In this document: piece after piece, positions 1,976 through 61,911 of the stretch
How the letters are laid out: each line of letters starts with the position of its first letter
How positions within the stretch are numbered: the stretch's first letter is position 1
IMG/VR virus record: IMGVR_UViG_3300018481_000003
Coordinates: 1 to 64,000 of that record
From: a virus
Direction: 5' to 3' (one strand)
DNA length: 64,000 nt
Position numbers and translations under genes: made by a program
Notes under the pieces: model-generated
The model's input: only the letters and a program-made list of their open reading frames with translations
What the model was told of the DNA's origin: nothing
Databases searched by the model: none

Positions 1976-2047
1976 GGGCACGTAGCTCAGTGGTAGAGCA
2001 CCTGCTTCACACGCAGGCAGTCGAGGGTTCGAATCCCCCCGTGCCCA
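1976..2047 (+). tRNA. tRNA-Val (anticodon CAC)
   Basis: Hand-folded cloverleaf. Acceptor GGGCACG/CGTGCCC; D arm GCTC-AGTGGTA-GAGC; anticodon arm CCTGC-TTCACAC-GCAGG (CAC at 34-36); T arm GAGGG-TTCGAAT-CCCCC (one A.C mismatch); discriminator A. No encoded CCA. Confidence 0.9.
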
Positions 2048-2206
2048 CTGATATCCCTGTATGGTCCAGGTATCACGGATCTGATCACCGACCTCGGTTA
2101 CGAACTCGATGACGATGAGCTAGCAGACCTCGCTGCCGAAGAGGCGGCTGAGGAAGCCCTGCTCCTGGACGAGGACGAGGAGCCGATCGAGGAACTCGAT
2201 CAGGAG

Positions 2207-3676
2207 ATGACCGACTTCCTCGACCAGTTGATCAAGCGCACGATCCTGTTCTGCGAGGAACTGTGGGGCCACGAACTGCGGCCATATCAGCGTTCGATGT
2301 CTTACCGGATGATCGAGTCTCTGATCCTCGGGGACGCCGAGGAGGTCACCGGGTTGATGGCCCGCCAGTCCGGCAAGTCAGAGGTCGTCGCCGTCACTCT
2401 GTCGGGCTGCATGATCCTCTTCCCGATCCTCGCCAAGACGTATCCGATCATGGACCGGTTCAAGGAAGGTCTGTGGGTCGGGTTGTTCGCCCCCGTCGAT
2501 GACCAGTCTGAACTTGTCTTTGCCCGCATCGTCTCCCGGTTGACCAGCGATAGAGCGATATCGATCCTCGCTGACCCGGAGATCGATGAGCGCGTCGAGG
2601 GACGTTCCAAGACGATTCGTCTCTCCAACGGATCGTTCTGCCGTCGCCAGACCGCCAACCCGAGGGCCAAGATCGAAGGCTCCACGTATCACATCATCGT
2701 CGTGGACGAAGCCCAGGAGGCTGACGAACAGGTCGTCCGCAAGTCGATCCACCCGATGCTCGCCGCCACTGGCGGCACGATGGTCAAGATCGGCACGCCC
2801 GGTTACACCAAGGGCGACTTTTACAAGGCGATCAACCTCAACAAGCGTCGTGCTCGGGGCAAGCGATCCAACCACTTCGAATACGACGAGCGGGTCGTCT
2901 GCAAGTACAACCCGTTCTACAAGAAGTTCATCGAGAAGGAGAAGCTGCGCCTCGGAGAGGACTCCGAAGAGTTCCAGATGTCATATCGCCTCAAGTGGAT
3001 GCTTGAGCGAGGGATGCTCATCACCGAGGATGATCTCGACGCCCTTGCTGACAAGACGATGGGCCTCATCAAGGGCTGGCACCGTTCCCCCTGCGTCGTC
3101 GGCATCGACCCGGCCAGGGTCAAGGACTCGACTGTCGTCACCGTCTGCTGGGTGGACTGGGAGTATCCCGATCCTGCCGGTTACCGGGAGCACCGCATCC
3201 TCAACTGGATGGAGATCCACAACACGGAGTGGGAAGAGCAGTACTTCGAAATCATGGACTTCCTCGACCCGTACTGGATCAGCCATGTTGGCGTCGATGC
3301 CCAGGGAATGGGGTCCGCAGTGGCCGACCGGATGCAGCGCCTGCTCGGCTCACGCTGTGAAGTCATTCCGTACTCCAGCGACGCCAAGAATCAGAGCGAG
3401 CGCTGGAAGCACCTGATTCAACTGATCCAGCGCCAGATGCTCATCTATCCCGGCCACTCCAAGGCCCGCCGTACCAGGGTGTGGCGCCGCTTCCGTCAAC
3501 AGATGGTCGATGTCGAGAAGGTCATGAAGGGCCAATACCTCCTGGTAGAGGCCCCCAACGAGCGTGAGGCCCATGAGGATTACGTGGACAGCTTGGCTCT
3601 TGCTGCTGCATGCAGCATGTCTGATGCGGTTCCTGTTGTTGAGCAGATGGACTCGCCGTTCTTCAATCGGTCCTGA
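2207..3676 (+). CDS. terL: terminase large subunit
   Basis: 489 aa. Walker A-like MARQSGKSE, Walker B IIVVDEAQE, and a C-terminal nuclease-type region with acidic motifs (VVGIDPAR.., GVDAQGMG). Lies upstream of the portal. The start is uncertain (see the acidic-leader finding). Confidence 0.9.
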   Translation: MTDFLDQLIKRTILFCEELWGHELRPYQRSMSYRMIESLILGDAEEVTGLMARQSGKSEVVAVTLSGCMILFPILAKTYPIMDRFKEGLWVGLFAPVDDQSELVFARIVSRLTSDRAISILADPEIDERVEGRSKTIRLSNGSFCRRQTANPRAKIEGSTYHIIVVDEAQEADEQVVRKSIHPMLAATGGTMVKIGTPGYTKGDFYKAINLNKRRARGKRSNHFEYDERVVCKYNPFYKKFIEKEKLRLGEDSEEFQMSYRLKWMLERGMLITEDDLDALADKTMGLIKGWHRSPCVVGIDPARVKDSTVVTVCWVDWEYPDPAGYREHRILNWMEIHNTEWEEQYFEIMDFLDPYWISHVGVDAQGMGSAVADRMQRLLGSRCEVIPYSSDAKNQSERWKHLIQLIQRQMLIYPGHSKARRTRVWRRFRQQMVDVEKVMKGQYLLVEAPNEREAHEDYVDSLALAAACSMSDAVPVVEQMDSPFFNRS

Positions 3677-3792
3677 TTTCTTCTGACGATTTTTGACATT
3701 CGCAGGCTCAACGAGCCTTGGGGGTGCCAGGAAACCCTGATAGCGCCGTTAACTGGTCTATGCTCCTGGTGATACCGGCCTAAGGAGGCAGC

Positions 3793-4155
3793 ATGTCCTA
3801 TCGCCCAGCTTCTGGCTACGAAACCGTCGTTGCTCAGAACCTTGCCCGTCGTGGTCCACTGCGCTTCGAAGAGGGCGTGGCAACCGACACCGACATCCCC
3901 AACGACTTCGGTCAAGGCGCCTACGGCGATCCCGGTGGAGATGGTCGGGGCCGTCCGTTCACGCCGATCAAGGGTCCAGAAGAGACGATGCGTGAGCGTG
4001 CCCACGTCGGTTCGGCCACTTGGATCGAGGCGCCCACGATGCTCTCCGACTTCGTCATCGGTGCTTCGATCGGCCAGGCACCGCCGTCGTTCGAACAAGA
4101 GGTTGGGTCTGAGGCACGCATCCGGCGCCTCAACCCAGCACAAGTCAGCGACTAA
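3793..4155 (+). CDS. hypothetical protein (120 aa)
   Basis: ORF 3793..4155 preceded by a strong SD, TAAGGAGG (3781-3788). Confidence 0.75.
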   Translation: MSYRPASGYETVVAQNLARRGPLRFEEGVATDTDIPNDFGQGAYGDPGGDGRGRPFTPIKGPEETMRERAHVGSATWIEAPTMLSDFVIGASIGQAPPSFEQEVGSEARIRRLNPAQVSD

Positions 4156-10993: not shown

Positions 10994-11033
10994 CCTGATA
11001 CGTCCCTTAGAGATGAGATACTCCTGTATCAGG
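10994..11033 (+). promoter_or_regulatory. hairpin after the portal gene (CCTGATAC / GTATCAGG arms, 24-nt loop)
   Basis: The 8-bp perfect inverted repeat starts 4 nt after the portal stop. Its arms contain the same GATAC/GTATC pair as the SD cassettes. Confidence 0.3.
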
Positions 11034-11085
11034 GCAATTCGTGCTAGAAATAGACCCCGTACATCTGGACAACCCGAGGGAACAC

Positions 11086-11898: not shown

Positions 11899-11960
11899 CG
11901 GGTAAGACAATACCCACATAGGGGCGCTCGCCGTCCCACGCTCCACAAGGAGAATCCACT

Positions 11961-13382: not shown

Positions 13383-13417
13383 CGTGGGCGGGGGTACGTG
13401 GAGTCCCCCCGCCCACG
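13383..13417 (+). terminator. GC-rich hairpin after the capsid gene (partial terminator/attenuator)
   Basis: CGTGGGCGGGGG / CCCCCGCCCACG, a 12-bp perfect stem with an 11-nt loop, 13 nt after the capsid stop. Confidence 0.55.
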
Positions 13418-13421
13418 TTGC

Positions 13422-13441
13422 GATACGGAGGTATCACAATG
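13422..13441 (+). promoter_or_regulatory. SD-in-hairpin cassette GATAC-GGAG-GTATC-ACA-ATG (copy 1)
   Basis: 5-bp stem GATAC/GTATC with GGAG in the loop. The 21 nt GATACGGAGGTATCACAATGA are identical to 51765-51785. Confidence 0.6.
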
Positions 13442-17011: not shown

Positions 17012-17217
17012 CCGTCATCTCTGCCCCCAACCAGCCCGTTCGGATCATCACTGGCGGCACCAATGGCGTCAACGTCACCGCTCGCACCGGTCCCGCTGGA
17101 CCAGCGGGTCCACCAGGGCCTCCCGGCGCTGCTGCACAATGGGATGCGATGAGTCAGGCCGAATACGACGCTCTGCCCGACAAAGACCCCAACACGCTGT
17201 ATGTCATCGTGCCGTAA
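17008..17217 (+). CDS. 69-aa collagen-like mini-protein
   Basis: Five G-X-Y triplets (GPAGPAGPPGPPGAA), then the QAEYDALPDKDPNTLYVIV motif common in phage fibre proteins. Confidence 0.65.
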   Translation: MTVISAPNQPVRIITGGTNGVNVTARTGPAGPAGPPGPPGAAAQWDAMSQAEYDALPDKDPNTLYVIVP

Positions 17218-17230
17218 GGAGGCAACCAAC

Positions 17231-17803
17231 ATGAAAGCAACCGCCTATCAGTTCGCTCACCATCGCATGGTCGATGGCGAGCGCTGCCTGATTTGGGGCA
17301 ATGGGATTGGCGAGTTGCTCATCCCGGTCAACTCCCCCGAGTACATCGAGGCCCTCAACGACCGCATCTGGTCACACAACGACCTCACCAACGAGGGCGA
17401 GGACGAACTGCTCAACACTTACTTCCGTACCCAGGCCAAGAAGGTCACCTTGTACGGGCGGCTGTACGGCGCAGGGACGTTCACCGATACATCCACGCTG
17501 GCATCCACCGGAGGTGCGACCGAGGTCACCGGCACCGGATACACCCCGACCTCGCAGTGTGCGTGGACGGTCGGTGACACCCACTTCGGTGCCCCGGCGA
17601 ACGTCTCCTCTTCGCAGACGACGACTTCGCAGACGAGGACGTTCACTGCTGGTGGCACTTGGACCGCTGCGGTGTCTCTCGTCTTGTCCGACGCTGCAAC
17701 AGGTACGTCGGGCAAGCTCATCGCCTGGGTTGCCCTGTCAACCACGCGCACGCTCGTCAACACCGACACCCTCGACGTTTCCATCGCTGTCGGACTGAAC
17801 TGA
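17231..17803 (+). CDS. hypothetical structural protein (190 aa), Thr/Ser/Gly-rich
   Basis: In-frame part of ORF 17201..17803. ATG 17231 lies 8 nt after TAAGGAGG. Confidence 0.7.
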   Translation: MKATAYQFAHHRMVDGERCLIWGNGIGELLIPVNSPEYIEALNDRIWSHNDLTNEGEDELLNTYFRTQAKKVTLYGRLYGAGTFTDTSTLASTGGATEVTGTGYTPTSQCAWTVGDTHFGAPANVSSSQTTTSQTRTFTAGGTWTAAVSLVLSDAATGTSGKLIAWVALSTTRTLVNTDTLDVSIAVGLN

Positions 17804-24284: not shown

Positions 24285-24303
24285 GATACGGAGGTATCAG
24301 ATG
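24285..24303 (+). promoter_or_regulatory. SD-in-hairpin cassette GATAC-GGAG-GTATC-AG-ATG (copy 2)
   Basis: Same 15-mer, GATACGGAGGTATCA, as at 13422 and 51765, directly upstream of ATG 24301. Confidence 0.55.
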
Positions 24304-24733: not shown

Positions 24734-25585
24734 ATGTCCGCACTAACGATTGCCGGGTCGGCCAGAGCGATGATCCGGGACTTCCCCAAGTACTTCGAAG
24801 TTGAGTTGGGTCCGCTCAACATTCTGACCATCCGCCTGCCCCATCCGTTGATCTCCCCGACCTCGATGCAGGTGTTCCTGGCTACCCCACCGACGCCCCC
24901 AGCTACCGAGTACATCTCCACGCAGACCAGTGACTGGGAACTCGATGAGCGCAACGGGCTGCTCAAGCTCACCAACGAGGAGGCGCTGAACAAGAGGGCG
25001 CTTGTATCGGCGTATCACTACACCTGGTTCTCCGACTCCGACTTGGCGATGCACGTCTCCCAGGCAGCCGACGAGGTCCTCTACAACACGCACGGCGACA
25101 TCGATGACATCGATGGCATCTACTCCGAGGTGACAGCGATGGGCGCCGTGGTCAGGGCGCTCTGGTCGTTGTGCCTGGAGTTCTCCTTCGATATCGACGT
25201 ATCGACGCCTGAAGGAATGTACATTCCGGCCCGTCAGCGGTTCGGCCAAGTGCTGCAAATGCTGAACTACTGGGAGAGCCAGTACACGGCTAGGGCCAAT
25301 GCATTGAACATCGGTCTTGGGGCGCTGGAGCAGTTCAACCTGCGTCGGACGGCGTATCTCACCAACAGGTATGTGCCGCAGTATCAGGGACGGGAAATTG
25401 ATGACCCTCGTTGGCCAAAGCGCATCCTGCACCCGGTTCCTGACAGCACGATGAGCGCCCCTGGTGGTGCCGACAGCGTTGATGTCATCGATGTGACCGA
25501 GGCGCTGACCCCGGCGTCGATGTCACGGCGTTACCAGGGTTGGCGTGAGATCGGCTGGACCAGTGTCGGAACGAGTGGTGTCTGA
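24734..25585 (+). CDS. hypothetical protein (283 aa); neck/adaptor role possible from position only
   Basis: ORF 24734..25585, starting 1 nt after the previous stop. Confidence 0.6.
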   Translation: MSALTIAGSARAMIRDFPKYFEVELGPLNILTIRLPHPLISPTSMQVFLATPPTPPATEYISTQTSDWELDERNGLLKLTNEEALNKRALVSAYHYTWFSDSDLAMHVSQAADEVLYNTHGDIDDIDGIYSEVTAMGAVVRALWSLCLEFSFDIDVSTPEGMYIPARQRFGQVLQMLNYWESQYTARANALNIGLGALEQFNLRRTAYLTNRYVPQYQGREIDDPRWPKRILHPVPDSTMSAPGGADSVDVIDVTEALTPASMSRRYQGWREIGWTSVGTSGV

Positions 25586-29790: not shown

Positions 29791-30649
29791 GCCATTCCGC
29801 GACGAGCCGGACATCTACACCCACGAAGGGTTCCTGCTGTCCGAGGACAAGTTGATGCTCGACCATCTCAGCGGCATCACCGTGCCGATGCGTGAATCCA
29901 CCGACCCACCGACGCCGGTCGGTGTGTGGTTCCGCTGGCCCGAGGGTGAACGGCAGATCAAGTATCCGTTCATGACCATCGATCTGCTGCAAGCTGAGCC
30001 TGCATTCGATCTCTTCCACTCCGACCATCGGGAGCCTGCCGTACACCTGTATCGGCCCTCTGTCTCCCCGGAACTGCCGGAACCTCCTGACGGTTGGGGC
30101 GCCCAGGGTTACTCGATCCGCAACTATCTGCCGTTCCGGTTGATGTATCAGGTGACGGTCCATGCTCGCAGCGCCCTGCACGACCGCTACTTGCAGTCGA
30201 TCTTCAAGACCGACGTGTTCCCGGTGCGGCCCTTCTGGATCTGGAACCCGATGGACGAGACTTGGCGGCGCACCGAGTTGCTCCAGGCGACCGCATCCGA
30301 TCTCTCCGAAACCACCGAGTCAGGCACCAAGCGGATCTTCCGCAAGGTGTACACGGTGTCGATGTTGGCCGAGGTTCCCCAGGACCGGATCATCGACTCC
30401 TACGTCTACAAGGCGCTGCGGGTGTTCATCCCCGTCGTGGACCTCGCCTGGTTCGATGACTACTACCACCAGATCCTCAAGAACCAGCCGACTCCGTTGA
30501 GCACGTTCACCCAACAGGAGCGGGCCGATGCCGGTGAGTGGTTGCACATCGTGCATGAAGGCATGGAAGTTCCGACACCGCCTGGGGCGATGTCGTTTGC
30601 TTACGGCGAAGGGCCTTATGGGTTCGGACCATACGGAGGTAACCCATGA
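29780..30649 (+). CDS. hypothetical protein (289 aa); tail completion/terminator candidate from position
   Basis: In-frame part of ORF 29753..30649 from ATG 29780 (11-nt overlap with the previous gene). Confidence 0.55.
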   Translation: MASRPFRDEPDIYTHEGFLLSEDKLMLDHLSGITVPMRESTDPPTPVGVWFRWPEGERQIKYPFMTIDLLQAEPAFDLFHSDHREPAVHLYRPSVSPELPEPPDGWGAQGYSIRNYLPFRLMYQVTVHARSALHDRYLQSIFKTDVFPVRPFWIWNPMDETWRRTELLQATASDLSETTESGTKRIFRKVYTVSMLAEVPQDRIIDSYVYKALRVFIPVVDLAWFDDYYHQILKNQPTPLSTFTQQERADAGEWLHIVHEGMEVPTPPGAMSFAYGEGPYGFGPYGGNP

Positions 30650-33738: not shown

Positions 33739-34359
33739 ATGCCCACAGCCCCATCCCTTGCTGACCGGACCCGCCTCCGTGCCGATCCCGTCCGCAACTT
33801 CAAGTTCCAGGTCCAACTGTTCCACTCCGATGCGAAGCTGCAAACGCAGATCGCAGAGATGGGCTTCATGACGGTGGAGGGCCTCTCGATGAACACCGAG
33901 ATGGTTCCCTACCGTGAGGGCGGCTGGAACACCAACCCACACAAACTCCCCGGTCTGACGGACTTCGCCCCACTTTCGATGAGTGCTGGCGTGTTCCACA
34001 CCAAACCGGGCATGTGGAATCTAGCGAAGCAAATGTTCTCCGTACAGTGGGGACAAGGAACCATCGGCTTCGGTGAAGAGTTCCGCTACGACATGGCCGT
34101 ACGTGTGCTCGACCACCCGGTGACTGACGGAGCGGCCTCTGGTTCGACCCGTGACACCTCGGGGTCGATCGTCGCCTTCGCCTTCTACAACTGCTGGACG
34201 GCGTCGGTGGGCTTCAACGGACTCAACGCCATGGACAACTCGGTCCTCATTCACCAGATGACCGTCCACCATGAGGGCTTCGACGTGTTCTTCGGCAACG
34301 CCGACGCGATGAACCTCCGTCATGGAGCCACCCAAGGGGTGCTTCCCGCATCCCGATAG
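33739..34359 (+). CDS. tail tube protein (T4 gp19 / contractile-injection-system tube family)
   Basis: ..VRNFKFQVQL..MGFMTVEGLSMNTEMVPYREGGWNTNPHKLPGLTDFAPLSMSAGV.. matches the conserved tube pattern. SD AAGGAG. Lies directly after the sheath gene. Confidence 0.85.
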   Translation: MPTAPSLADRTRLRADPVRNFKFQVQLFHSDAKLQTQIAEMGFMTVEGLSMNTEMVPYREGGWNTNPHKLPGLTDFAPLSMSAGVFHTKPGMWNLAKQMFSVQWGQGTIGFGEEFRYDMAVRVLDHPVTDGAASGSTRDTSGSIVAFAFYNCWTASVGFNGLNAMDNSVLIHQMTVHHEGFDVFFGNADAMNLRHGATQGVLPASR

Positions 34360-34385
34360 TCCACTATCACACAGGAGAATGAATC

Positions 34386-41844: not shown

Positions 41845-43727
41845 CCGACACCGGCATTCTCGTCTCGCTAGAGGATGAGGACGTATTCCGTTCACGGGTC
41901 GTCCTCGACTACACCAGCCGAGATTTCACCGCCATCAGGGCACAGCTTGTCGGCCTGGCCGAAGGCCTGATGCCTGAATGGGAAACGGTCGGGGAGTCCT
42001 CCGACTTCGGCACGCTGTTACTGGAACTGTTCGCTTACATGGGCGACGTGATGCACTTCTACATCGACCGCACCGCATCCGAGGCGTTCCTTGGCACGGC
42101 AGTGCGGCGCCAGTCCGTGATGTACATCGCTGACATGTTGGGATACCGGCCTATCGGACAGCAGGCAGCTACCGTCAAGCTCTACTTCTCCTTGGACGCC
42201 AACGCTGAGGAGGAGATCAAGTTGCCCGCCCGCACCAGGGTGTACAACGAGACTGACAACGCCGAGTCCGTCGTCGTCTTCGAAACCGACATGGAAATCA
42301 CTCTTGAGCCGGGAAACGTTGATATCTCGGTGACCGCTACTGAGGGCGTCTCGGTTCGTGATGTGATACTTGGAATCAGCCTGGGCATCCCCAACTCCGA
42401 GTACCTGCTCAGGGAGAAGGGCATCGTCTACGGCACCGTGTCCGTGCAGTCCGACGAGGCCGGTCAGACCCTGCCGTGGACCTTCGTCACCGACCTTGCT
42501 CTTGCTCGCCCGACACAGCCAGTGTTCACCACGTTCCTCGATGACCAAGACAACACACATGTCGTGTTCGGTGACAATGCAGCCGGTCGTATCCCTCCTG
42601 TCGATGCCACGATGTACGTCAGCTACCGCTTTGGCGTCGGGAGAATGGCTAACGACCTCGCTCCCAACACGATCAACACGATCTCAGCATCGTCAGCCAC
42701 GAACATCGATATGTGGGGAGTCACGGTACGTAACCCGCAGTCTCCGATCGGCGGTACTGACCCCGAGACTATTGAGTCAATGAGATTCTCGATCCCCAGG
42801 GCTGCCTCCAGGATCAAGAGTCGGGCTGTCACCCTCAATGACTACGCCGACTTGGCGATGCAGGTTCCGGGCGTGGCCAAGTCAGTCTCCTACGGCACGG
42901 TGTACACCGCCGTCCATGTCGTTCTCGCCCCTGTCGATGGCAAGGGTGACGAGAACTACATGACCAAGCTGTGCCTCCAGGTCGAGGACTACATGAAGGA
43001 CAAGATCATCGTCGGCTCGACGGTCTACGCCGAACCGCATGATGTCGAAGACCTGTGGGAGACGGTCCACATCAGGCTGCTTGTTCATGTGATCGAGGGA
43101 TACAACCGTACGAGCGTCCGTTTGCAGGTCGAGTCGGTGATCATCAGGTTGCTGGAGTTCAACAACGTGGACTTCGGTTGGCGGGTTTCGATCGGCAAGA
43201 TTTACCGGGCCGCTCTGGCAGTCCAGGGCACGGAGTGGGTCGAGTTGATGTGGCTCTCCACAACAGAGCCGACCACGCTTGAGGATCAGGACATGGCTCC
43301 GATCACTGGCAACGCAAACCCTTCTCCTGGGATCGTCACAGACATCGAGGTCGATCCGCTGTTGATCCCGAGGATCGCCCCCACTCCGGTGCTGACAACG
43401 TCAACCGTGATCAAGAGATCCTTGACCTCCAACGTTGCCACGTTGACTACATCGACTACCCACAGCCTGATCCCTGGTGACATCATCGAGGTGCGGAACG
43501 TGGACGCCACGTTCAACGGTCGCTACGAAGTGCTCGCTACTCCTACGGCGACATCGCTGACCTACGACAAGACGAATGCTGATATTCCAGAGGTTGAGCT
43601 TGTCGCTGGCAGCGTGGATCAAATCTCACCACCTGCGGATGAAGCGCTGTTCCCTGGCCTCAGTGAGCCTGAGCGCACCCATAACGGTCTATGGGTGTGG
43701 GCCGTTGGAGGAGTTCCTGGAACGTGA
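41841..43727 (+). CDS. baseplate J-like protein with an extra C-terminal ~65-aa module
   Basis: 628 aa with an ATGA overlap. The N-terminus ..DYTSRDFTAIRAQLVGLAEGLMPEWETVGESSDFGTLLLELFAYMGDVMHFYIDRTASEAFLGTAVRRQSV.. is the baseplate J signature. Confidence 0.85.
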   Translation: MTDTGILVSLEDEDVFRSRVVLDYTSRDFTAIRAQLVGLAEGLMPEWETVGESSDFGTLLLELFAYMGDVMHFYIDRTASEAFLGTAVRRQSVMYIADMLGYRPIGQQAATVKLYFSLDANAEEEIKLPARTRVYNETDNAESVVVFETDMEITLEPGNVDISVTATEGVSVRDVILGISLGIPNSEYLLREKGIVYGTVSVQSDEAGQTLPWTFVTDLALARPTQPVFTTFLDDQDNTHVVFGDNAAGRIPPVDATMYVSYRFGVGRMANDLAPNTINTISASSATNIDMWGVTVRNPQSPIGGTDPETIESMRFSIPRAASRIKSRAVTLNDYADLAMQVPGVAKSVSYGTVYTAVHVVLAPVDGKGDENYMTKLCLQVEDYMKDKIIVGSTVYAEPHDVEDLWETVHIRLLVHVIEGYNRTSVRLQVESVIIRLLEFNNVDFGWRVSIGKIYRAALAVQGTEWVELMWLSTTEPTTLEDQDMAPITGNANPSPGIVTDIEVDPLLIPRIAPTPVLTTSTVIKRSLTSNVATLTTSTTHSLIPGDIIEVRNVDATFNGRYEVLATPTATSLTYDKTNADIPEVELVAGSVDQISPPADEALFPGLSEPERTHNGLWVWAVGGVPGT

Positions 43728-48558: not shown

Positions 48559-48816
48559 ATGGAGTATGTCGTCGTTGTACTAGCGGTGTGGGGTGTGTGC
48601 GACACCGCCAAGGTCCTGCTAGATGGACCTGAGTGGGCCTGGAAGGTTCTGCCGTTCGTTCTCGGTCTGGCTGGGCAGGCCTTGGTCAACCCCTCCTACC
48701 TGTGGTACGGGATCGGCTGGGGGGCGGCAGCGATGTTGTTGACACTCGTCTCGGACGTGTTGCTGGTAACCGCAGACTGGGTTAGGTTTGCGGCTCTGCG
48801 TACGCAGAAGAGATGA
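48559..48816 (+). CDS. small membrane protein, holin-like (85 aa, 2-3 hydrophobic helices, basic C-terminus)
   Basis: MEYVVVVLAVWGVC..WKVLPFVLGLAGQALV..GIGWGAAAMLLTLVSDVLLV..RTQKR. Lies after the fibre gene, near the end of the late operon. Confidence 0.5.
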   Translation: MEYVVVVLAVWGVCDTAKVLLDGPEWAWKVLPFVLGLAGQALVNPSYLWYGIGWGAAAMLLTLVSDVLLVTADWVRFAALRTQKR

Positions 48817-48829
48817 AGGAGAATCCGCC

Positions 48830-51764: not shown

Positions 51765-51784
51765 GATACGGAGGTATCACAATG
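51765..51784 (+). promoter_or_regulatory. SD-in-hairpin cassette GATAC-GGAG-GTATC-ACA-ATG (copy 3)
   Basis: Identical over 21 nt to copy 1 (13422-13442), directly upstream of ATG 51782. Confidence 0.6.
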
Positions 51785-51967: not shown

Positions 51968-52045
51968 TAGCGCCCTACTGCTAGTAGGTTGATCATCGTG
52001 AACGGGGCACCACGCCCCATCGGAGCAAGAAACAGGAGTACCACC

Positions 52046-53872
52046 GTGACCGATACGAGCGCCGCCAAGGCGCGTACCACCCGGAGGAAGCTGCAAAGCG
52101 TTCCTCCCCCACCTGATCCGGCACCACCGGACCCGGTGGACTTGGAGCTACTTGAAGAGTGCTCCCAACACACCATGGAGGACGGCAGGCAACTGCTGTA
52201 CTTCGAAGACGGGCAGAAGCCGAGCGACGTGCTGCTGGAGGCAGTCGATGTCGTGGTGGCCGAGAACAACATGCGGTTGCAGGCAGGAGGGTTCCACCCC
52301 GACCTAATCTTCCGCAGCGGCAAGGACAGTGGGCAGTTCGTCACCCTCGCCAAGGATGACGACGGCACCGTGGTCGTCAAGCCGCTGACCAACGTCGGCA
52401 TCTCGATGGCCTTGCAGAGTCGCTTCTGCTACCTCGCTGGGAAGAAGGTCAAGACGCACCGTCCGATGCCTGGCTGGTTCGCCGGGGCATTGAACTACGG
52501 CAACACCGAGTACCGCTTCCCGATCCTCAACGGACTGCTCAACCATCCGGCCATCCATCTCGACGGCAACATCGTGGACCGTGAGGGCTACGACCCGGTG
52601 ACCAAGTGCTGGGTCGTCGCTGGTTGGGACAACCTCAAGGTTCCGGCCAAGCCGAGCGCCAAGCAGATGACGGCGGCGATCCAAACGCTGCGTGAGCCGT
52701 TCGAAGAGGTCATCTTCGCTGGCGACAACGTGGTCGATGCCAGCCCGGTCAAGGGCGACGGAGCGATCATGGTGGCGAGCGAGGCCAACGCCCTCGGGTT
52801 GATGTTCACCCCGTTGGTGCGGGCGCAGTTGACGACTGCACCGTTCTTCATCATCACGTCGAGTCAGTGGGGCACGGCCAAGGGCCTCGTCGCCACGATC
52901 ATCTCGATCATCGCTCAGGACAGCGCACCGTTGCTCACCGACATGAAGATCAGCCCCGATCAGATGGAGAAGAACGTGGACCGCGTGCTCCACGACCATC
53001 CCGGCGCCAAGATCATCCAGTTCGATGAGCCGCAGGACGCCAACAGTGGTGGTCGGTTCCACAGTCGCAAGCTGGCTCTGCTGGCGACGACCGACAAGTA
53101 CGTCAACCGTCCGGTGTACGGGCGGGCGGCGGTGTCGGTGGACACACGACGGACGATGATCTTCACCGGCATCAACATCAGGCCCGACCAGGACATGGTG
53201 CGTCGGGTCAGCTTCATCGAGTTGGCCCTCCCGGAGGATGGCACGCTGCCCCATGAGCGTGAGTTCAAGCATGAGGACCGCAACGACAAGGTGAAGCTCC
53301 AGCAGTGGGTCAGCGCCAACCGGCGCAACTTCATCGCTGCGATGCTCACGCTGGTCAACGGATGGCGGGAGGCGGGCTGCCCGCAAGCCGACTTCTCCTT
53401 CGACTTCCCCGAGTGGGTCCACACTGTCGGCGGCATCCTCCAGAATGCCGGTATCACAACGTGGATGGCCAACCGCAACGACGTGTACTCCAACGCTGAC
53501 GAGGCGTTGAAGACGGCCTTCATTCTCGGTGTCGCAGGAGTCACCGGAGCGGGACCGTTCACGTCACGGCAGATCGCCAAGCTGCTGATCAACTCCAAGC
53601 AGTCCGAGGAACTGATGGACAAGCTGGCCTGGGACGACACCTGGGCACGCAAGCTCCACCAGGGATGGAAGGACGAGGACGAGATGACCTACTGCATCGG
53701 TCGGCTGCTGGGCGGGTTGAAGGACCGGCTCCTGGCGGACGGCAACGGTGGTCGGATCATCGTGTCGTCTCCCGGCGTCAACCACGCCAAGCAACAGGTG
53801 TGGACTTTCACGACTCCTGGGGTGACAGTGCCTCAGGTCAAGCGAGGTCGTCCCCGCAAGTCCACTCCGTAA
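52046..53872 (+). CDS. P4/D5-type (SF3) primase-helicase-like protein with a non-canonical P-loop and a C-terminal AT-hook
   Basis: In-frame part of ORF 51989..53872. GTG 52046 lies 8 nt after AGGAG. Layout ..RFPILNGLLNHPAIHLDGNIVDREGYDP..FFIITSSQWGTAKGLVATIISII..KIIQFDEP.. The P-loop position reads SSQWGTAKG rather than GxxGxGK[ST]. The protein ends ..VKRGRPRKSTP. Confidence 0.45.
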   Translation: MTDTSAAKARTTRRKLQSVPPPPDPAPPDPVDLELLEECSQHTMEDGRQLLYFEDGQKPSDVLLEAVDVVVAENNMRLQAGGFHPDLIFRSGKDSGQFVTLAKDDDGTVVVKPLTNVGISMALQSRFCYLAGKKVKTHRPMPGWFAGALNYGNTEYRFPILNGLLNHPAIHLDGNIVDREGYDPVTKCWVVAGWDNLKVPAKPSAKQMTAAIQTLREPFEEVIFAGDNVVDASPVKGDGAIMVASEANALGLMFTPLVRAQLTTAPFFIITSSQWGTAKGLVATIISIIAQDSAPLLTDMKISPDQMEKNVDRVLHDHPGAKIIQFDEPQDANSGGRFHSRKLALLATTDKYVNRPVYGRAAVSVDTRRTMIFTGINIRPDQDMVRRVSFIELALPEDGTLPHEREFKHEDRNDKVKLQQWVSANRRNFIAAMLTLVNGWREAGCPQADFSFDFPEWVHTVGGILQNAGITTWMANRNDVYSNADEALKTAFILGVAGVTGAGPFTSRQIAKLLINSKQSEELMDKLAWDDTWARKLHQGWKDEDEMTYCIGRLLGGLKDRLLADGNGGRIIVSSPGVNHAKQQVWTFTTPGVTVPQVKRGRPRKSTP

Positions 53873-53988
53873 TGCGGGGGGATGCGGGGGGATCAACCCC
53901 GACCTTCGGAGGTCCAGGGCATTGTCCCTGGGCCTTCGTCGTTGTGGGCTGGAAGGTGGCCGAACATCCCCCCGCATCCCCCCGCATT
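53871..53988. repeat. perfect 23-bp inverted repeat (each arm = 2 x ATGCGGGGGG) enclosing a 72-nt three-hairpin core
   Basis: 53871-53893, AATGCGGGGGGATGCGGGGGGAT, is the exact reverse complement of 53966-53988. Inner hairpins lie at 53901-53914, 53914-53931 and 53931-53961. TTTATTAT follows. Confidence 0.85.
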
Positions 53989-54005
53989 TATTATCTCAAT
54001 GCGTG

Positions 54006-54036
54006 CGTTGATATCAACGTGGTAGCTCGCTATGGT
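54006..54036 (+). promoter_or_regulatory. candidate promoter (TTGATA - 17 nt - TATGGT) overlapped by the 14-bp palindrome CGTTGATATCAACG (operator-like)
   Basis: Palindrome 54006-54019; -35 at 54008-54013; -10 at 54031-54036 (TANNNT). Lies 34 nt upstream of ATG 54070, which has a GGAGGA SD. Confidence 0.4.
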
Positions 54037-54069
54037 TCCGTCTCTTAGCGACACCGGAGGACTAACACC

Positions 54070-54792
54070 ATGGAGCACACGAAGTACGAGGCCCTCGTCA
54101 ACGAGGGGAGGAATCTTTGGACGAACAGCAAGCAGGCTCAGGCCCGCTTGATGGTCATCCTCAAGATCGTTCAGGACGACGGCTGTCTCGACACCTACTG
54201 CGAGGACATCGGCCTCACCCCGGCAACGGCGAAGAACTACCTCGCCGCCTACGACAAGTTTCTTGACCTCGGCTTCGTCCCTGGGTCGGGAGATGGCGTC
54301 GATCAGACCATCGTCAGGATGTGGGAAGACATCTACGACCCGACGCTTTTCGATCCGCGCTATAGCACGGTGGATCGTGAAGGTGTGGACGCCGCCGCCA
54401 GAGAGTTGGAGTTGAGAGGTTCGACCAAGGCCTACGACATCGCCAAGAACCCCAACTCGATGAAGGCGGCAATCATCGGTGACGGACGTGCCGCTTCGGC
54501 AGCAGTCGAAGCGATCATCGCCAGGGCCAAGACCGATCCGTTGATCGCCATCGCTTTGCGGGCTGGCTTTCGTGACACCCCGCCTCGTCCTCTGGACCGT
54601 CCGCATCGGGACGCCGACACCATCGTCAGGGATGCTCTGCACTCTCTCGACCATGCGGCCATCCGCCTGACCGAGATCGACGTTCCTGACTACATGGCCG
54701 ATCTCGTCGCCCGTCATGTGGGGAACTCCCTCGGCATTCTCCACAACGTCATCACGATCATGAGGGGGAAGGGGGTGTTGCAGGACTTGTAG
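54070..54792 (+). CDS. hypothetical early protein (240 aa), possible HTH near the N-terminus
   Basis: ORF 54070..54792 with SD GGAGGA. Sequence ..CEDIGLTPATAKNYLAAYDKF.. Confidence 0.65.
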   Translation: MEHTKYEALVNEGRNLWTNSKQAQARLMVILKIVQDDGCLDTYCEDIGLTPATAKNYLAAYDKFLDLGFVPGSGDGVDQTIVRMWEDIYDPTLFDPRYSTVDREGVDAAARELELRGSTKAYDIAKNPNSMKAAIIGDGRAASAAVEAIIARAKTDPLIAIALRAGFRDTPPRPLDRPHRDADTIVRDALHSLDHAAIRLTEIDVPDYMADLVARHVGNSLGILHNVITIMRGKGVLQDL

Positions 54793-54863
54793 TCCGCAAG
54801 GACTAATGACACAACACCAGTTGTGTCTCGGAGCACATCGGCCCGAGGGCCGAAAGGGGAACA

Positions 54864-55382
54864 ATGAGCATTGCTCAGGCAGCAGCGCTGCGAACACACC
54901 TCCAGAACCTCACGACATCAGGGGCGGCGATCACCGCCTACCCGGATGCCGAGGAACTGGTTCTCAACTGGGGGGCCACGACTTACGACGTGGCTGATCT
55001 CGTCAGAGCCGTCCGTCAGGGCTGCCCTCCCGGTTACATCATCCCGTTCGTCTGCAAGTGGACGGACATGCGGGTGATCATGGCCCACGGCAACGGCCAG
55101 TGGTTCACTCACGCCTTGCTGGCGACGGCAGCTTCGATGTCGTACTGCAAGACGAGACTGCGGAACGTCGCTCGCGACTTCCGCAACATGGCGGCAGGGT
55201 TCCCGGCAGGGACGCCCTTCCGTGTGAGCACGGAGAACTTCTGCTCCGTGGTCGAGGCGTTCACGGCACCGGGCTACGGCCCCCTGTCCATCGCCATCAC
55301 CCAGTTGCCGATGCTCGCTCGTCGGGCCTCGGCAGCAGAACGGGCGTTGCTCACCAGTGAGGCGGCACGTTACGCTGCCTAG
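54864..55382 (+). CDS. hypothetical early protein (172 aa)
   Basis: ORF 54864..55382 with SD AAAGGGGA. Confidence 0.65.
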   Translation: MSIAQAAALRTHLQNLTTSGAAITAYPDAEELVLNWGATTYDVADLVRAVRQGCPPGYIIPFVCKWTDMRVIMAHGNGQWFTHALLATAASMSYCKTRLRNVARDFRNMAAGFPAGTPFRVSTENFCSVVEAFTAPGYGPLSIAITQLPMLARRASAAERALLTSEAARYAA

Positions 55383-55461
55383 TTCACAGGTGGTTACCGG
55401 TTCGGACCCGGTCTGTTGCTCATGAGGCGCAGTAAGGCTCAAACGGAGAGCTACCAACCAG

Positions 55462-55494
55462 GAGCCGCCCTTCGGGGCGGCTCTTGTCGTTATT
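55462..55494 (+). terminator. intrinsic terminator
   Basis: GAGCCGCCC-TTCG-GGGCGGCTC followed by TTGTCGTTATT. Confidence 0.75.
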
Positions 55495-55504
55495 ATGCCA
55501 ACAC

Positions 55505-55577
55505 GCCGGGTTAGCTCAGTAGGCAGAGCAGTCGCCTTGTAAGCGACAGGTCGTCCGTTCGAACCGGACACCCGGCT
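55505..55577 (+). tRNA. tRNA-Thr (anticodon UGU)
   Basis: Hand-folded cloverleaf. Acceptor GCCGGGT/ACCCGGC; D arm GCTC-AGTAGGCA-GAGC; anticodon arm GTCGC-CTTGTAA-GCGAC (TGT); variable AGGTC; T arm GTCCG-TTCGAAC-CGGAC; discriminator T. Confidence 0.9.
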
Positions 55578-55602
55578 CGACGTAACATGAGTCCAGACAA
55601 GC

Positions 55603-55637
55603 GAAGAGGCCGGGGGACTTGCATTCCCGGCCTCTTC
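55603..55637 (+). terminator. terminator-like hairpin downstream of tRNA-Thr
   Basis: GAAGAGGCCGGG / CCCGGCCTCTTC, a 12-bp perfect stem with an 11-nt loop. The tail is not U-rich (ATAAACC). Confidence 0.5.
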
Positions 55638-55665
55638 ATAAACCTCGTTCCGATCTGAGGTCAAC

Positions 55666-56592
55666 ATGGATAAGGGTAAGGGACGGCAAGCCAGGTTGCA
55701 AGCCTACGACGCCATCAGGCGGATGGAGAGGCCCGACAGCATCACGCCGACCAACTGGAATCGGGTGGAGCAACTGCTCTGGATCATCGCTCGCCGGTAC
55801 CCGAAGGCCTACCCCAGCCAGGAACGGTTGGCCGCTGAAATGAAGTTGAGTACTCGCACAGTACGTCGGTTGATTCGCATGGCTAGAGAGGCCGGGTTGC
55901 TAACGGTGTGGCGTGATGCAGGGACGAAGAAGCGTCACAGTTACTCCAAGACGAACTGGTATCACATCACGGAGTTGCTAGAGCATGAGGACAAAGTGTC
56001 CCCATTGAATGAGGACAGAATGGCCTTCGAAGGTACAGGTGATACTTCCGTATCCCCGTACCAGCAAACACCACCTTCGGTGAAGAGAACTTCGTTCTCT
56101 TCTCCTACGAGTGGTTCGGCCCGCCAGCGGCGGGGCCGAACTACGGTTGAGAAGGTGGACAAGAGCCGAGCAGAACAGATCGCTGCGGCAGCAGGGGATC
56201 GGCGCATCGAGAGGCGACCACGGCAGAAGGAGTTCAATCCTTCTCGGCGCCTGGCTTCCCACTTCCTGGACCAGTGGGAGAACTTGTGCCAGCACCAGAC
56301 ATCGCTGCGCGACTTCCGCCCCGCCGACTCGGTGGGTCAGATGGTTGGTTACTTCCGGGCCACCTTCCTGGCTCCGGTTGCCGGTCGCGTGTACACCCCC
56401 GATGAGGTTCGTGAGTACATCGACCAGTTCATCGAAGAGGTCCGTCGCGGGGACGTACAGGTCAAGCGGAAGCAGTCAGCGTTCATGCGCTTCTGCGGGT
56501 GGTGGGGGCGGGATCGGTCCCCGGACATGCCCGCAGATGTTTCTCGCCGGTACCACGAAGAGGCCTTGACGAAGCGACAGCGGGCGCAGTAA
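55666..56592 (+). CDS. winged-helix/HTH DNA-binding protein (possible replication initiator or regulator)
   Basis: 308 aa with SD GAGG. HTH-like segment ..SQERLAAEMKLSTRTVRRLIRMAREAGLLTV.. Confidence 0.55.
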   Translation: MDKGKGRQARLQAYDAIRRMERPDSITPTNWNRVEQLLWIIARRYPKAYPSQERLAAEMKLSTRTVRRLIRMAREAGLLTVWRDAGTKKRHSYSKTNWYHITELLEHEDKVSPLNEDRMAFEGTGDTSVSPYQQTPPSVKRTSFSSPTSGSARQRRGRTTVEKVDKSRAEQIAAAAGDRRIERRPRQKEFNPSRRLASHFLDQWENLCQHQTSLRDFRPADSVGQMVGYFRATFLAPVAGRVYTPDEVREYIDQFIEEVRRGDVQVKRKQSAFMRFCGWWGRDRSPDMPADVSRRYHEEALTKRQRAQ

Positions 56593-56612
56593 CTTCACTT
56601 CCTCATCAAGTC

Positions 56613-56663
56613 CCCCCCAGGGCCAGTAGGCCATGGCCGTGGTCCTGGGGTAACCCTGGGGGG
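56613..56663. repeat. 10-bp perfect inverted repeat CCCCCCAGGG / CCCTGGGGGG with a palindrome-containing 31-nt loop
   Basis: The arms are at 56613-56622 and 56654-56663. The loop contains GGCCATGGCC and an alternative pairing partner, GGTCCTGGGG. Confidence 0.7.
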
Positions 56664-56691
56664 TTCCTGATGGGGAGGACGAAAGGACTTG

Positions 56692-57252
56692 ATGATGACA
56701 TCGACGTTGCCGACACGTCTCGGCACGTACAAAGACCTCCAAGAGCACCAGCAACTCGCTGTTGCGGAGTGGTGGCAAAACGTCCGTGATGGTCAGGGCC
56801 AGGTCGGGCTGTGGGTTTACGGCAACCGAGGCGAGGGGGCCAGCTTCATCGGCACTGCCGCCATGCGACGGTTGGTTCGTGACGGTGTCATCGCTGAACC
56901 GGACTGGGAGTACATCAACTCCTTCGACCTGATGGATCAGATTCGCATCTCCTGGTCGGCTGACCAGGTGTCCCGAGGCAACGCCAACGACTACGACTTG
57001 TACACCGAGGCGGCTCGCTTTGAGGATGACGTGAAGAAGTTGTGGAGCATCAAGCTGTTGATGGTTGACGACGTGTATCACAACCAGGATATGGCTTTCT
57101 TCCGCAAGCACATCTTTGACCGGCTGTTCCAGCGGGTCAAGGATGCGTTGCCCACAGTGGTCGCCACGGATATGCCACCATCGGCTCCCCAGGTGGAGAT
57201 GTGGCAGAAGGTCATCGAGTCTTGGTTCGTGACGTGCTATGCAGAACGGTGA
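56692..57252 (+). CDS. DnaC/IstB-like helicase-loader candidate with a degenerate Walker A
   Basis: ORF 56689..57252 with ATG 56692/56695 after GAAAGGA. The segment ..GLWVYGNRGEGASFIGTAAM.. occupies the P-loop position but has no GK[ST]. Walker B-like LLMVDDV. Lies immediately upstream of the DnaB-like helicase. Confidence 0.4.
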   Translation: MMTSTLPTRLGTYKDLQEHQQLAVAEWWQNVRDGQGQVGLWVYGNRGEGASFIGTAAMRRLVRDGVIAEPDWEYINSFDLMDQIRISWSADQVSRGNANDYDLYTEAARFEDDVKKLWSIKLLMVDDVYHNQDMAFFRKHIFDRLFQRVKDALPTVVATDMPPSAPQVEMWQKVIESWFVTCYAER

Positions 57253-60340: not shown

Positions 60341-61911
60341 CTCTCCGTCCCTACCAGGTCGAGGCAGTTGACCGCATCGTAGAACGGCGTAGTCTGCTGC
60401 TTGCGCTGACGATGGGGGCGGGTAAGACAGTGGCGGCTGTCTCCGCGGTAAGGCATCTCCGTCGTCAGCGCATCGTGGACAAGGGTGTGATCTTCGCTCT
60501 CAAGTCCACCAAGTGGCAGTGGGTCAGAGAGATCGCCAAGGTCGATCCCCGAGCCAAGGTGCAGGTGGTGGATGGCGACAGAAGATCCAGAACTGCCGCC
60601 ATCCGCCGTGCAGGACGGTACCACTACACGATCATGCACTACGAGTGTTTGGTCAACGACTGGGACATGATCAAGAAGTACCTGCCGATCGACTTCATGA
60701 TTCTGGACGAGGCCACCTACATCAAGAGCTTCCGGGCCAAGCGATCCCGAGCAGCGAAGGCGTTGGGCAAACGTTCAGGCGTTCGTATGGCCCTATCGGG
60801 ACAGCCGGTGGAGAACCGGCCCGAGGAACTCTTCTCGATCATGGAGTTCGTGGACCCCGAAGTACTCGGCAGCTTCCACAAGTTCGACCGCACGTTCATC
60901 GTCCGTGATGGCTACGGCAGGCCCAAGAGGTACCGCAATCTCAACCTGATCCACCAACGTCTCGGCCCAGCGATGTACCGCAAGAGCCGTGAGGACATCG
61001 CTGAGTGGCTGCCAGAGATGATCGAACTGGAGATGCCTGTCGTTCTGGACCCGGCGACGATGGCCCTTCACGATCTGATTCGTCACGACCTCTCTGTCGC
61101 CATCGACAAGGCCCTCGCTGAGGGTGTGCGGGGCGGCTTCGACATCCTCACCCACTACGGACGGACGCCGACCGGCAAGGACGCCTCGCTGATGGGTGAC
61201 GTGATGTCCCGGTTGCTGGCGATGAGGATGCTGTCGAGTCACCCAGCGCTCCTCAACATCTCAGCGAAAGACTTTGATAGCGAGGTATCGAGGCGTGGCA
61301 GCAAGTACGCCAGCGAACTCAACGCCTCGGGTGCCCTCTCAGGTCTGCCCAACACCCATGAGAAGTTGGACCACCTTCTGGAACACGTCGATGAGATACT
61401 GGATGAGGACCCACGCCACAAGGTCGTCGTCTTCTCCTACTTCAAGCCGATGCTGTCGATGATCGCCAGGGAACTGATCGGCAGGATCACCAAGGGGCCA
61501 CTGGGTGCGGGCCTGACGATGATCACCGGGGATGTCTCAGGTATCGAGAGGGACAACCGCATCCAGCGGTTCAACAACAGCCCCGACTGTCGCATCTTCC
61601 TGTCGTCGGATGCCGGGGCCTACGGCATCAACCTCAACCAGGGCAGCCATCTGATCTGCTACGACCTACCGTGGTCAGCCGGTGCTCTCTCACAACGCAT
61701 CTCCCGCATCGACCGCACCGACTCGTCGTTCAAGCAGATCCACATCGGTTACATGTTCGGCCTGAACACCATCGAGGAACGGATGTTCAACATGCTGATC
61801 CAGAAGCGCAAGGTGGCCCGAGCCTTCATCGACGGTGAGTTCGACGGCAAGGGCGGCGGCTCGATCAACCTCGACCTGGAGTCACTGCGCGAGTTCCTCG
61901 ACACGCAGTAA
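60331..61911 (+). CDS. SNF2-family (SF2) helicase / DNA-dependent ATPase
   Basis: 526 aa, GTG start. Motif I LTMGAGKTV, motif II ILDEATYIK, and C-terminal helicase motifs ..FLSSDAGAYGINLNQGSHLICYDLPWSAGALSQRISRIDR.. Confidence 0.9.
   Translation: MELTLRPYQVEAVDRIVERRSLLLALTMGAGKTVAAVSAVRHLRRQRIVDKGVIFALKSTKWQWVREIAKVDPRAKVQVVDGDRRSRTAAIRRAGRYHYTIMHYECLVNDWDMIKKYLPIDFMILDEATYIKSFRAKRSRAAKALGKRSGVRMALSGQPVENRPEELFSIMEFVDPEVLGSFHKFDRTFIVRDGYGRPKRYRNLNLIHQRLGPAMYRKSREDIAEWLPEMIELEMPVVLDPATMALHDLIRHDLSVAIDKALAEGVRGGFDILTHYGRTPTGKDASLMGDVMSRLLAMRMLSSHPALLNISAKDFDSEVSRRGSKYASELNASGALSGLPNTHEKLDHLLEHVDEILDEDPRHKVVVFSYFKPMLSMIARELIGRITKGPLGAGLTMITGDVSGIERDNRIQRFNNSPDCRIFLSSDAGAYGINLNQGSHLICYDLPWSAGALSQRISRIDRTDSSFKQIHIGYMFGLNTIEERMFNMLIQKRKVARAFIDGEFDGKGGGSINLDLESLREFLDTQ

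Follow-up and report, generated by a model that had tools for sequence, protein, structure and literature searches.

The 64,000-nt stretch analyzed here (positions 1 to 64,000 of IMG/VR virus record IMGVR_UViG_3300018481_000003; hereafter, the window) has a G+C content of 59 to 62% and carries essentially all of its genes on the + strand. They follow the order terminase, portal, scaffold, capsid, PKD-domain protein, fibre-like proteins, contractile sheath, T4 gp19-type tube, baseplate, and a replication block (primase/polymerase-like, HTH_36, DnaB-like, DnaG-type primase, and SNF2 helicase genes). Over two thirds of its length, the capsid protein shares ~70% identity with its counterparts in the Streptomyces myoviruses BRock, GiJojo, and pSt2308, and it is 56 to 84% identical to those of 80 IMG/VR contigs kept as relatives, some of which are 100 to 118 kb long; no near-identical phage was found in GenBank. 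The subject of this report is a short inverted repeat, GATA-N6-TATC, that is dispersed over the window and three copies of which (GATAC-GGAG-GTATC; hereafter, the cassette) enclose a Shine-Dalgarno (SD) sequence in front of a start codon.

A sequence-only reading of the window had described a 15-mer repeated directly upstream of three ATG codons, with its SD sequence in the loop of a potential hairpin, and this description held. The 14-mer GATACGGAGGTATC occurs three times with zero mismatches, always on the + strand (Table 1), and its GGAGG lies 7, 6, and 7 nt before ATG codons that open real open reading frames (ORFs) of 296, 143, and 61 amino acids (aa), respectively. The first and third copies share the claimed 21-nt identity (GATACGGAGGTATCACAATGA), and similarity among the three copies extends no more than a few bases beyond the palindrome. 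The arms are reverse complements of each other, and the 14-mer is predicted to fold into a 5-bp stem with GGAG in the loop (-3.8 kcal/mol; z = -5.1). A search allowing up to two mismatches, which that reading had suggested, returned 7 matches in the window against 0.27 expected from dinucleotide shuffles, a number reached in 0 of 100 shuffles, so that chance is excluded as the origin of the repeat. The 3' tail of 16S rRNA, 5'-GAUCACCUCCUU, is an established conserved sequence; in a comparison made by hand, only GGAGGU of the cassette pairs with it, and GAUAC and AUCAC do not. Every exact cassette in the window, and every one in related loci for which gene direction set the orientation, reads in the sense direction and leaves 1 to 6 nt between GTATC and the start codon. 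By its position and orientation, the cassette centre is an ordinary SD sequence at a normal distance from the start.

A fourth, variant copy had been placed before ATG 30646. The sequence (CATACGGAGGTAAC) is present and serves as the SD sequence of that gene, but the TATC half-site is missing, the predicted fold reaches only -0.6 kcal/mol, and the sequence resembles the cassette largely because the 3' end of the upstream gene is encoded there (...GPYGFGPYGGNP*). We regard it as a doubtful member of the family and did not count it. The upstream gene, which ends at 30649, has a Gly/Tyr-rich C-terminal repeat (30581-30649; AYGEGPYGFGPYGGNP), its last codons double as the SD sequence of the next gene, and its stop codon overlaps the following start (ATGA).

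The arms of the cassette form a palindrome that is far more widespread than the cassette itself. The window contains 10 copies of GATA-N6-TATC against 0.17 expected, and a scan of spacers from 0 to 12 nt found these 10 copies at a spacer of 6 nt and 0 or 1 copy at every other length (0.07 to 0.2 in shuffles). The GC-rich relatives hold 121 distinct N6 copies against 0 to 6 for the other spacers in the 2- to 10-nt range, and the distant low-GC relatives show no N6 enrichment. A sister clade (capsid ~56% identical) carries GATA-N4-TATC and GATA-N5-TATC and no N6 copies. When the palindromes of the family were mapped on the window, they occupied at least 40 distinct positions, many of them recurrent (among relatives, n = 11 at the post-portal site, n = 14 at 13423, and n = 8 each at 25190, 42142, and 61279). 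Of the window copies, one keeps a set distance to a -10 element, four are found no more than 35 nt ahead of a start codon, and five lie inside genes; half of the copies fall in intergenic, start-adjacent sequence, which makes up a few per cent of the window.

Table 1. Positions of the cassette, the dispersed palindrome, and accompanying features (window coordinates unless a contig is named)
Feature	Position	Strand	Context
Palindrome GATAG-AGCG-ATATC	2549..2562	.	Within terminase gene; not conserved in relatives
Palindrome GATAC-TCCT-GTATC	11017..11030	.	Post-portal; 10 nt upstream of extended -10 element, centred near -33
Extended -10 promoter-like element GTGCTAGAAAT	11041..11051	+	Upstream of scaffold and capsid genes; kept even in distant low-GC relatives
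GC-rich terminator-like hairpin	13383..13417	+	Between capsid stop and cassette 1; compensatory double changes in 7/11 pairs, 18 relatives
Cassette 1, GATAC-GGAG-GTATC	13422..13435	+	SD GGAGG 13427-13431, ATG 13439; PKD-domain decoration-like gene after capsid gene
Cassette 2, same 14-mer	24285..24298	+	SD 24290-24294, ATG 24301; 143-aa protein after fibre genes
Palindrome GATAT-CGAC-GTATC	25190..25203	.	Intragenic, encodes D-I-D-V-S; family cluster n = 8
Doubtful variant CATACGGAGGTAAC	30630..30643	+	SD of ATG 30646; within 3' end of upstream gene (...GPYGGNP*)
Palindrome GATAG-TCCA-CTATC	34355..34368	.	Followed by ACAC, separate SD AGGAG 34373-34377, N8, GTG 34386
Palindrome GATAC-CGGC-CTATC	42142..42155	.	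Within baseplate wedge gene; RNA dG 0.0
Cassette 3, same 14-mer	51765..51778	+	SD 51770-51774, ATG 51782; 61-aa protein
Palindrome GATAC-TTCC-GTATC	56041..56054	.	Within HTH_36 gene 55666-56592 (winged-helix, replication-initiator-like)
Palindrome GATAG-CGAG-GTATC	61276..61289	.	Within SNF2-type helicase gene; RNA dG -0.5
Sister-clade N4/N5 palindromes	L263:8933, L263:13012, L264:8942, L265:4320 and nearby		
tRNA Val(CAC)	1976-2048		Upstream of terminase gene
tRNA Thr(TGT)	55505-55578		Upstream of HTH_36 gene

Some copies of the palindrome, in the window and in relatives, stand near a ribosome site without containing it. At 34355, the palindrome precedes a separate SD sequence and the GTG start of a gene with a T4 baseplate-like domain located after the tube gene. 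The orthologous site in L086/L087 reads ATAC-CCYC-GTAT followed by CACACAGGAG, again with a separate AGGAG and a GTG start, and L012 has CATAC-CCGT-GTATC-ACACGCC-GAAGGAAC...ATG, i.e., a non-SD centre with a separate SD sequence. The same arrangement, in which the arms are kept around a non-SD centre and the SD sequence lies downstream, is found in L033, L020, and L039. Since the arms thus occur in the -35 region of a promoter, before separate SD sequences, and inside five genes, they are not specific to ribosome sites, and a hairpin that presents or sequesters the SD sequence lacks support as the main explanation.

The promoter-associated copy lies between the portal and scaffold genes, where the sequence-only reading had noted a hairpin with the same arms; both the palindrome at 11017 and an additional GATAC at 10997-11001 were found there. 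Downstream of it, a conserved element, GTGCTAtAAgT, matches an extended -10 promoter by sequence. The distance between the palindrome and this element is 10 nt at 15 of the 19 loci, 11 nt at 3, and 9 nt at 1, and the bases in between vary freely. A fixed distance to a -10 element is a property of DNA. In the sister clade, the post-portal palindrome is located just downstream of a -10-like element, TGCTATACAT; sites near -33 and just downstream of a promoter are typical repressor positions. A generic promoter/terminator scan of the window was uninformative. A further conserved element, GGACAAC, is found downstream of the extended -10 element and may belong to the leader.

Four of the five intragenic copies recur in relatives, and in three of these it is rare codons that maintain the palindrome. 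In the helicase gene (61276), GATA...TATC is retained in most of the 12 close relatives while the encoded residue switches among V, L, and I; NTA codons (GTA, CTA, or ATA) are used in 12 of 12, although they make up 4.6% of V/L/I codons. At the baseplate wedge site (42142), eight relatives share GGA, which accounts for 14% of Gly codons, and CCT, which accounts for 20% of Pro codons, while the middle codon varies. Among the 24 relatives listed with more than 50% identity, 8 retain the GTA codon (6% of Val codons) of the copy at 25190. The arms at 56041 persist around four different centres, and three relatives have the copy at the mapped position. The copy at 2549 may be a chance or lineage-specific occurrence. 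The predicted RNA stability at 61276, 42142, and 25190 is 0 to -0.7 kcal/mol, i.e., these sites hardly fold.

This last point bears on an RNA-level alternative, in which the GAUAC-GGAG-GUAUC hairpin, together with its non-SD-loop kin next to SD sequences, would be a translational operator bound by an RNA-binding protein that co-ordinately represses or activates mainly late genes, in the manner of T4 RegA, the MS2 coat protein, or CsrA/RsmA. Such an operator would be consistent with the uniformly sense orientation of the exact cassettes at 1 to 6 nt from the start, with the stable fold of the cassette around its SD sequence, and with a stem conserved in sequence, as recognition by a protein would need; in other relatives, this position ahead of the gene that follows the decoration gene is taken by a small hairpin of another sequence. 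The ACGGA of the cassette presumably fits the A(N)GGA-in-loop pattern of CsrA-type sites. The conserved intragenic copies and those with inner mismatches have RNA stabilities of ~0 kcal/mol, however, and no CsrA-like or other RNA-binding domain was detected in the 30 window proteins scanned against Pfam. CsrA is not known from Actinobacteria, to which the host probably belongs. Pairing of the GUAUC spacer with the GAUAC of the 16S 790 loop and mimicry of helix 45 were also considered; they are unsupported and are not proposed here.

A test for covariation also argues against a selected RNA stem. We used 81 distinct non-cassette 14-mers from a census anchored on GATA...TATC; as half-site positions 1 to 4 are fixed by this search pattern, the test was confined to positions 5 and 10. 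At these positions, 33 Watson-Crick pairs were found against 35.1 expected (P = 0.76), i.e., there was no covariation, and the uncompensated combinations C/C and G/G (27 together) outnumbered the compensated G/C combination (4). (A looser ATA-N6-TAT census of 390 sites was dropped for this purpose because it was too noisy, and a count of G·U versus A·C variants, 30 versus 11, was left unused because orthologous coding sites counted repeatedly and duplicate loci in reverse orientation had inflated it.) The base preferences are instead mirror images of each other: position 5 resembles position 10, position 6 resembles position 9, and two flanking bases on each side follow suit (A is avoided on the left and T on the right), which results in a consensus of roughly BBGATACC-NN-GGTATCVV. 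Mirror-symmetric preferences in the flanks and centre are unexpected for a hairpin loop. The independent degeneracy of mirror-image half-sites at a fixed distance fits a homodimeric DNA-binding protein, since an RNA stem would compensate. Taken together, the occurrence of the arms outside ribosome sites, the strict spacing, the rare codons at nonfolding sites, and symmetry without covariation suggest recognition of double-stranded DNA rather than of an RNA stem. A translational regulator that binds the cassette hairpin, as the sequence-only reading had envisaged, remains a rival that we consider unlikely.

The terminator-like hairpin at 13383, directly adjacent to cassette 1, provides an internal comparison. 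It follows the capsid stop codon and lacks a T-tract; its probable role is that of a terminator or attenuator of the actinobacterial type, or of an RNA-stabilizing end of the capsid message. In an alignment of 18 sequences, the cassette 14-mer is identical in 14, and none of its three predicted pairs changes on both sides. As the cassette is frozen while the adjacent hairpin covaries (Table 1), the cassette is selected for its sequence and not merely for pairing. This comparison weighs on a second alternative, namely, a purely cis-acting structured ribosome site, in which a weak AU-rich stem would present or insulate the SD sequence or protect a processed 5' end, with no trans-acting factor, and thereby provide strong, context-independent initiation for genes without translational coupling. 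The cassette genes do come after intergenic gaps, and two of these genes also stand behind hairpins; few window genes have a complete, properly spaced GGAGG, and the cassettes and the variant form a large share of these; and G-poor SD-to-start spacers (TATCACA, TAACAC, and AATCCAC) recur in this phage group. Nevertheless, an element selected for structure only should drift with compensation as the adjacent terminator does, and the same arms at a promoter, before separate SD sequences, and inside genes, always with a strict N6 spacer, would be left unexplained. We judge this alternative improbable.

Conservation of the cassette before orthologous genes, which had been named as a check, differs among the three copies. 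The copy at 13422 is exact in ~14 to 17 distinct relatives with capsid proteins 69 to 82% identical, where the post-capsid layout consists of the stop codon, a long GC-rich hairpin, 3 to 8 variable bases, GATACGGAGGTATC, 2 to 5 bases, and the ATG of a gene beginning 'MSIVAVHGP...'. The copy at 24285 is kept in L084 and L038. The copy at 51765, before the 61-aa gene that lies between a DUF6283 gene and the primase/polymerase-like gene, is absent from L183 and L184, which are the nearest relatives, though the 61-aa gene is present there; L189 has GATAGCCAGGTATCAC-ATG. Exact cassettes in other relatives precede the tail tube gene, a gene for a 96-aa protein, and a small membrane protein gene; the exact sequence precedes at least six unrelated gene families. 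Gain and loss of the cassette therefore occur one gene at a time, with the full sequence re-created on each occasion. The earlier proposal of a shared signal is supported, the signal being under selection and having a working SD sequence at its centre; its translation-centred reading is only partly supported.

The 16-mer GATACGGAGGTATCAC had 26 hits in all of IMG/VR, ~20 of them from this phage family; the 20-mer cassette had no hits among 185,579 bacterial and archaeal species genomes, and neither the cassette nor the palindrome was seen within the 13 kb examined of the cultured relative GiJojo. Two unrelated phage contigs of low G+C content (L177:1020 and L178:5489; 41% and 30% G+C) have an exact GATACGGAGGTATCAC directly before the ATG of a real ORF, probably as a chance recurrence of an SD-containing word.

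The same comparisons address the suggestion that the cassette is a module-junction sequence spread by recombination or gene conversion, or that its copies reflect common descent plus chance. Mosaicism is present near two of the copies: the fibre gene upstream of 24285 is nonhomologous in the nearest relative while the downstream genes are homologous, and the region downstream of 51782 is mosaic. However, conservation of that fibre gene extends over its last 28 codons, which places the break away from the cassette, and both genes flanking 13422 are conserved and syntenic. Similarity between copies ends within a few bases of the palindrome, and ~20 of the 26 IMG/VR hits of the 16-mer belong to this family. 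The present data suggest that similarity breakpoints do not coincide with cassettes; the module-junction idea is unsupported, and we hold this explanation to be highly improbable.

On these grounds, we tentatively propose as the most likely reading, at somewhat less than an even chance, that the palindrome is a dyad-symmetric DNA site for a dimeric regulator, comparable to an operator or stoperator, and that in the cassette a ribosome site occupies its spacer. The cassette would then consist of two overlapping signals: an ordinary SD sequence, GGAG(G), at the centre and operator-like arms, the latter representing half-sites of a 14- to 18-bp dyad-symmetric motif of the consensus given above. 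A putative homodimeric, sequence-specific DNA-binding protein, encoded by the phage or by its host, would occupy the palindromes. At the post-portal promoter, a site near -33 would probably allow such a protein, acting as a repressor, to time the transcription of the scaffold and capsid genes; elsewhere, the sites might act as roadblocks or form a genome-wide control network, as operators plus stoperators or KorB operators do. The centre of the palindrome varies between sites, is apparently weakly constrained, and could therefore host an SD sequence where gaps are short; because intergenic gaps of 20 to 30 nt leave the SD sequence and the palindrome no choice but to overlap, two superimposed constraints would make identical 14- to 21-mers recur before unrelated genes. 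The predicted mRNA hairpin with the SD sequence in its loop would be an unavoidable by-product, and its effect on translation, if any, would be secondary.

Several observations weigh against this operator-like reading. No consistent -10-like element was found at a promoter-type distance from any palindrome except the post-portal one, on either strand, and a composite scan for palindrome, 10 nt, and extended -10 element over all family loci returned the post-portal site only, so that the role of the remaining sites is conjectural. Some variants look compensatory or wobble paired (CATAC...GTATG in L010, GATAG...CTATC at window position 34355, and U·G pairs in L033, L023, and L019), which, together with a variant in L014, an RNA operator would account for. 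The SD-type cassettes are strictly start proximal and in the sense orientation, and ACA-ATG after GTATC recurs before unrelated genes, both of which fit a role in RNA. Within the sister clade, one orthologous site has an N4 spacer in two contigs but an N5 spacer in a third, which resembles the tolerance of a loop to length changes and not a rigid dimer. Several relatives keep the 3' half (GGTATCAC) without the 5' half, which a simple model of two half-sites does not predict. Candidates for the DNA-binding protein in the window are only weak: the HTH_36 protein (55666-56592) and the products with a weak winged-helix match (59936) and a weak match to MerR (63342).

A DNA site need not serve gene expression, and the palindrome could instead be a replication or recombination signal, a nicking or base-modification site, or a ParB/KorB-like clamp site whose overlap with ribosome sites is incidental. 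The copies are dispersed (~1 per 6 kb), fixed in position, dyad symmetric, and found also inside essential genes, one conserved copy being within the gene for the replication-initiator-like HTH protein. This explanation seems rather unlikely, given that one copy is precisely promoter phased and that half of the window copies are intergenic and start adjacent, which suggests a role in gene expression. Moreover, no iterons, clustered copies, or origin were found around 56041, and the scanned window proteins yielded no domain of a methyltransferase, nickase, or ParB, much of the genome probably lying outside the window. A combined scheme, in which one phage protein would read the palindrome both on DNA (late-promoter operator and roadblocks) and on RNA (the SD hairpin of late genes), strikes us as quite improbable. 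If it were true, a single factor would couple the transcriptional and translational timing of virion genes, and the scheme would also offer a mechanism for the start-associated sequences (SAS) of mycobacteriophages.

Those sequences are the closest formal parallel to the cassette. The SAS of Cluster K phages are SD-containing 13-mers with symmetric ends (consensus GGGATAGGAGCCC), which lie a few bases before start codons and occur in 11 to 19 copies per genome in the non-structural arm (PMC3203893); their extended form, ESAS, consists of inverted repeats that the authors judged likelier to be protein-binding DNA sites than RNA hairpins (PMC3203893). The function of SAS was still unresolved in 2025 (PMC12699233). 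As in SAS, the SD core of the cassette sits inside a short conserved motif whose flanks cannot pair with 16S rRNA, the motif lies a few bases before start codons (mostly ATG) in the sense orientation, different gene families are preceded in different relatives, and the outer parts are symmetric (GGG...CCC in SAS and GATAC...GTATC in the cassette). Unlike SAS, the cassette has a different sequence, belongs to unrelated myoviruses whose host group is probably different, and is present in only three SD-type copies per 64 kb, two of them before structural genes; its arms also occur without an SD sequence, at a promoter and inside genes, with a strict N6 spacer.

In proposed mechanism, the closest parallel is the system of Cluster A operators and stoperators, recognized by repressors of the L5 gp71 type, in which a single short site is dispersed over the genome. 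Copies at a promoter are proposed to block the initiation of transcription, and those in short intergenic spaces near gene boundaries its elongation; a stoperator is an asymmetric 13-mer to which the repressor binds as a monomer, with an action that depends on orientation (PMC9283540). The palindrome shares with them the many dispersed copies of one short site at both a promoter and short intergenic spaces. It differs in being dyad symmetric, flanks included, and in occurring also inside coding regions; in addition, the window shows no sign of lysogeny functions, and candidates for a cognate repressor are only generic HTH proteins. The palindrome and cassette thus belong neither to SAS, from which they differ in sequence and distribution, nor to stoperators, whose asymmetry they lack.

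Two other comparisons concern the layout of sites. The KorB OB sites of the IncP plasmid RK2 comprise about a dozen copies of one palindrome over ~60 kb, which are promoter adjacent, remote, or intragenic. The palindrome described here resembles that system in copy number over a roughly 60-kb span and differs in that RK2 is a plasmid, KorB is a ParB-family protein, with no ParB-like gene seen in the window, and ribosome sites are not overlapped by OB sites. Binding sites of CsrA/RsmA, T4 RegA, and MS2 coat protein likewise place GGA in an SD-overlapping hairpin loop on several unlinked mRNAs; unlike these sites, the palindrome shows no covariation, includes copies without a ribosome site or an RNA fold, and is present as one site per mRNA. 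With dimeric palindromic operators, the palindrome shares inverted half-sites at a fixed distance, mirror-image degeneracy, and no need for complementarity, the binding protein being putative. Likeness to the BldD box and the LexA (Cheo) box fails on half-site sequence or spacing.

If the operator-like reading is true, a genome-wide control system based on one strictly spaced palindrome would operate in this large clade of uncultured soil myoviruses, strong enough to impose rare codons on helicase, baseplate, and other genes and to fix the surroundings of several ribosome sites. It would supply a testable model for start-associated motifs, namely, an operator whose weakly constrained spacer houses a ribosome site, and a ready motif for the search for a regulator and for dissecting late-gene timing in actinophages. 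It would also advise caution in annotation, as identical repeats that look like a 'super-RBS' (ribosome-binding site) may be two-signal composites and not translation devices.

The host of the phage is probably an actinomycete, as indicated by the kinship of its capsid protein to those of Streptomyces myoviruses and by a related 112-kb contig within the isolate assembly of Nonomuraea roseoviolacea JCM 3145, which may itself hint at the host. Other related contigs among L263-L268 (45 to 110 kb) are binned in metagenome-assembled genomes labelled Microthrixaceae, Saccharibacteria, Armatimonadota, Proteobacteria, and Gemmatimonadales, probably as a result of misbinning. Within the replication module, the region 51989-57660 is a mosaic replacement: compared with L183-L187, the primase/polymerase-like gene and its neighbours are without counterpart, and the flanking DUF6283, 61-aa, and DnaB-like genes are shared. 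No relatives of the primase/polymerase-like gene were found, and the DnaB-like gene was used as the query instead. An Rfam search of the window returned two tRNAs only (Table 1).

Other words are also repeated in the window. GGTATCACAA, with up to one mismatch, occurs at 21 sites (including 32865, 35629, and 53450), whereas 2.45 are expected; most of these are on the + strand, and some are intragenic. It was dropped as a separate element, since the one intragenic copy tested, in the sheath gene, is accounted for by a conserved V-G-Y-H peptide and varies at synonymous sites. Another ribosome-site context that recurs, GCC(G/T)TAAGGAGGCA, precedes two genes (3775-3800 and 17209-17233), and its GCC...GGC can form a 3-bp stem around the SD sequence. 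A third context, AAGGAGAATCC(A/G)YC, is located before the capsid gene (11946-11960) and before the gene at 48830 (48815-48829), as well as before several genes in L033, L039, L014, L075, and L078.

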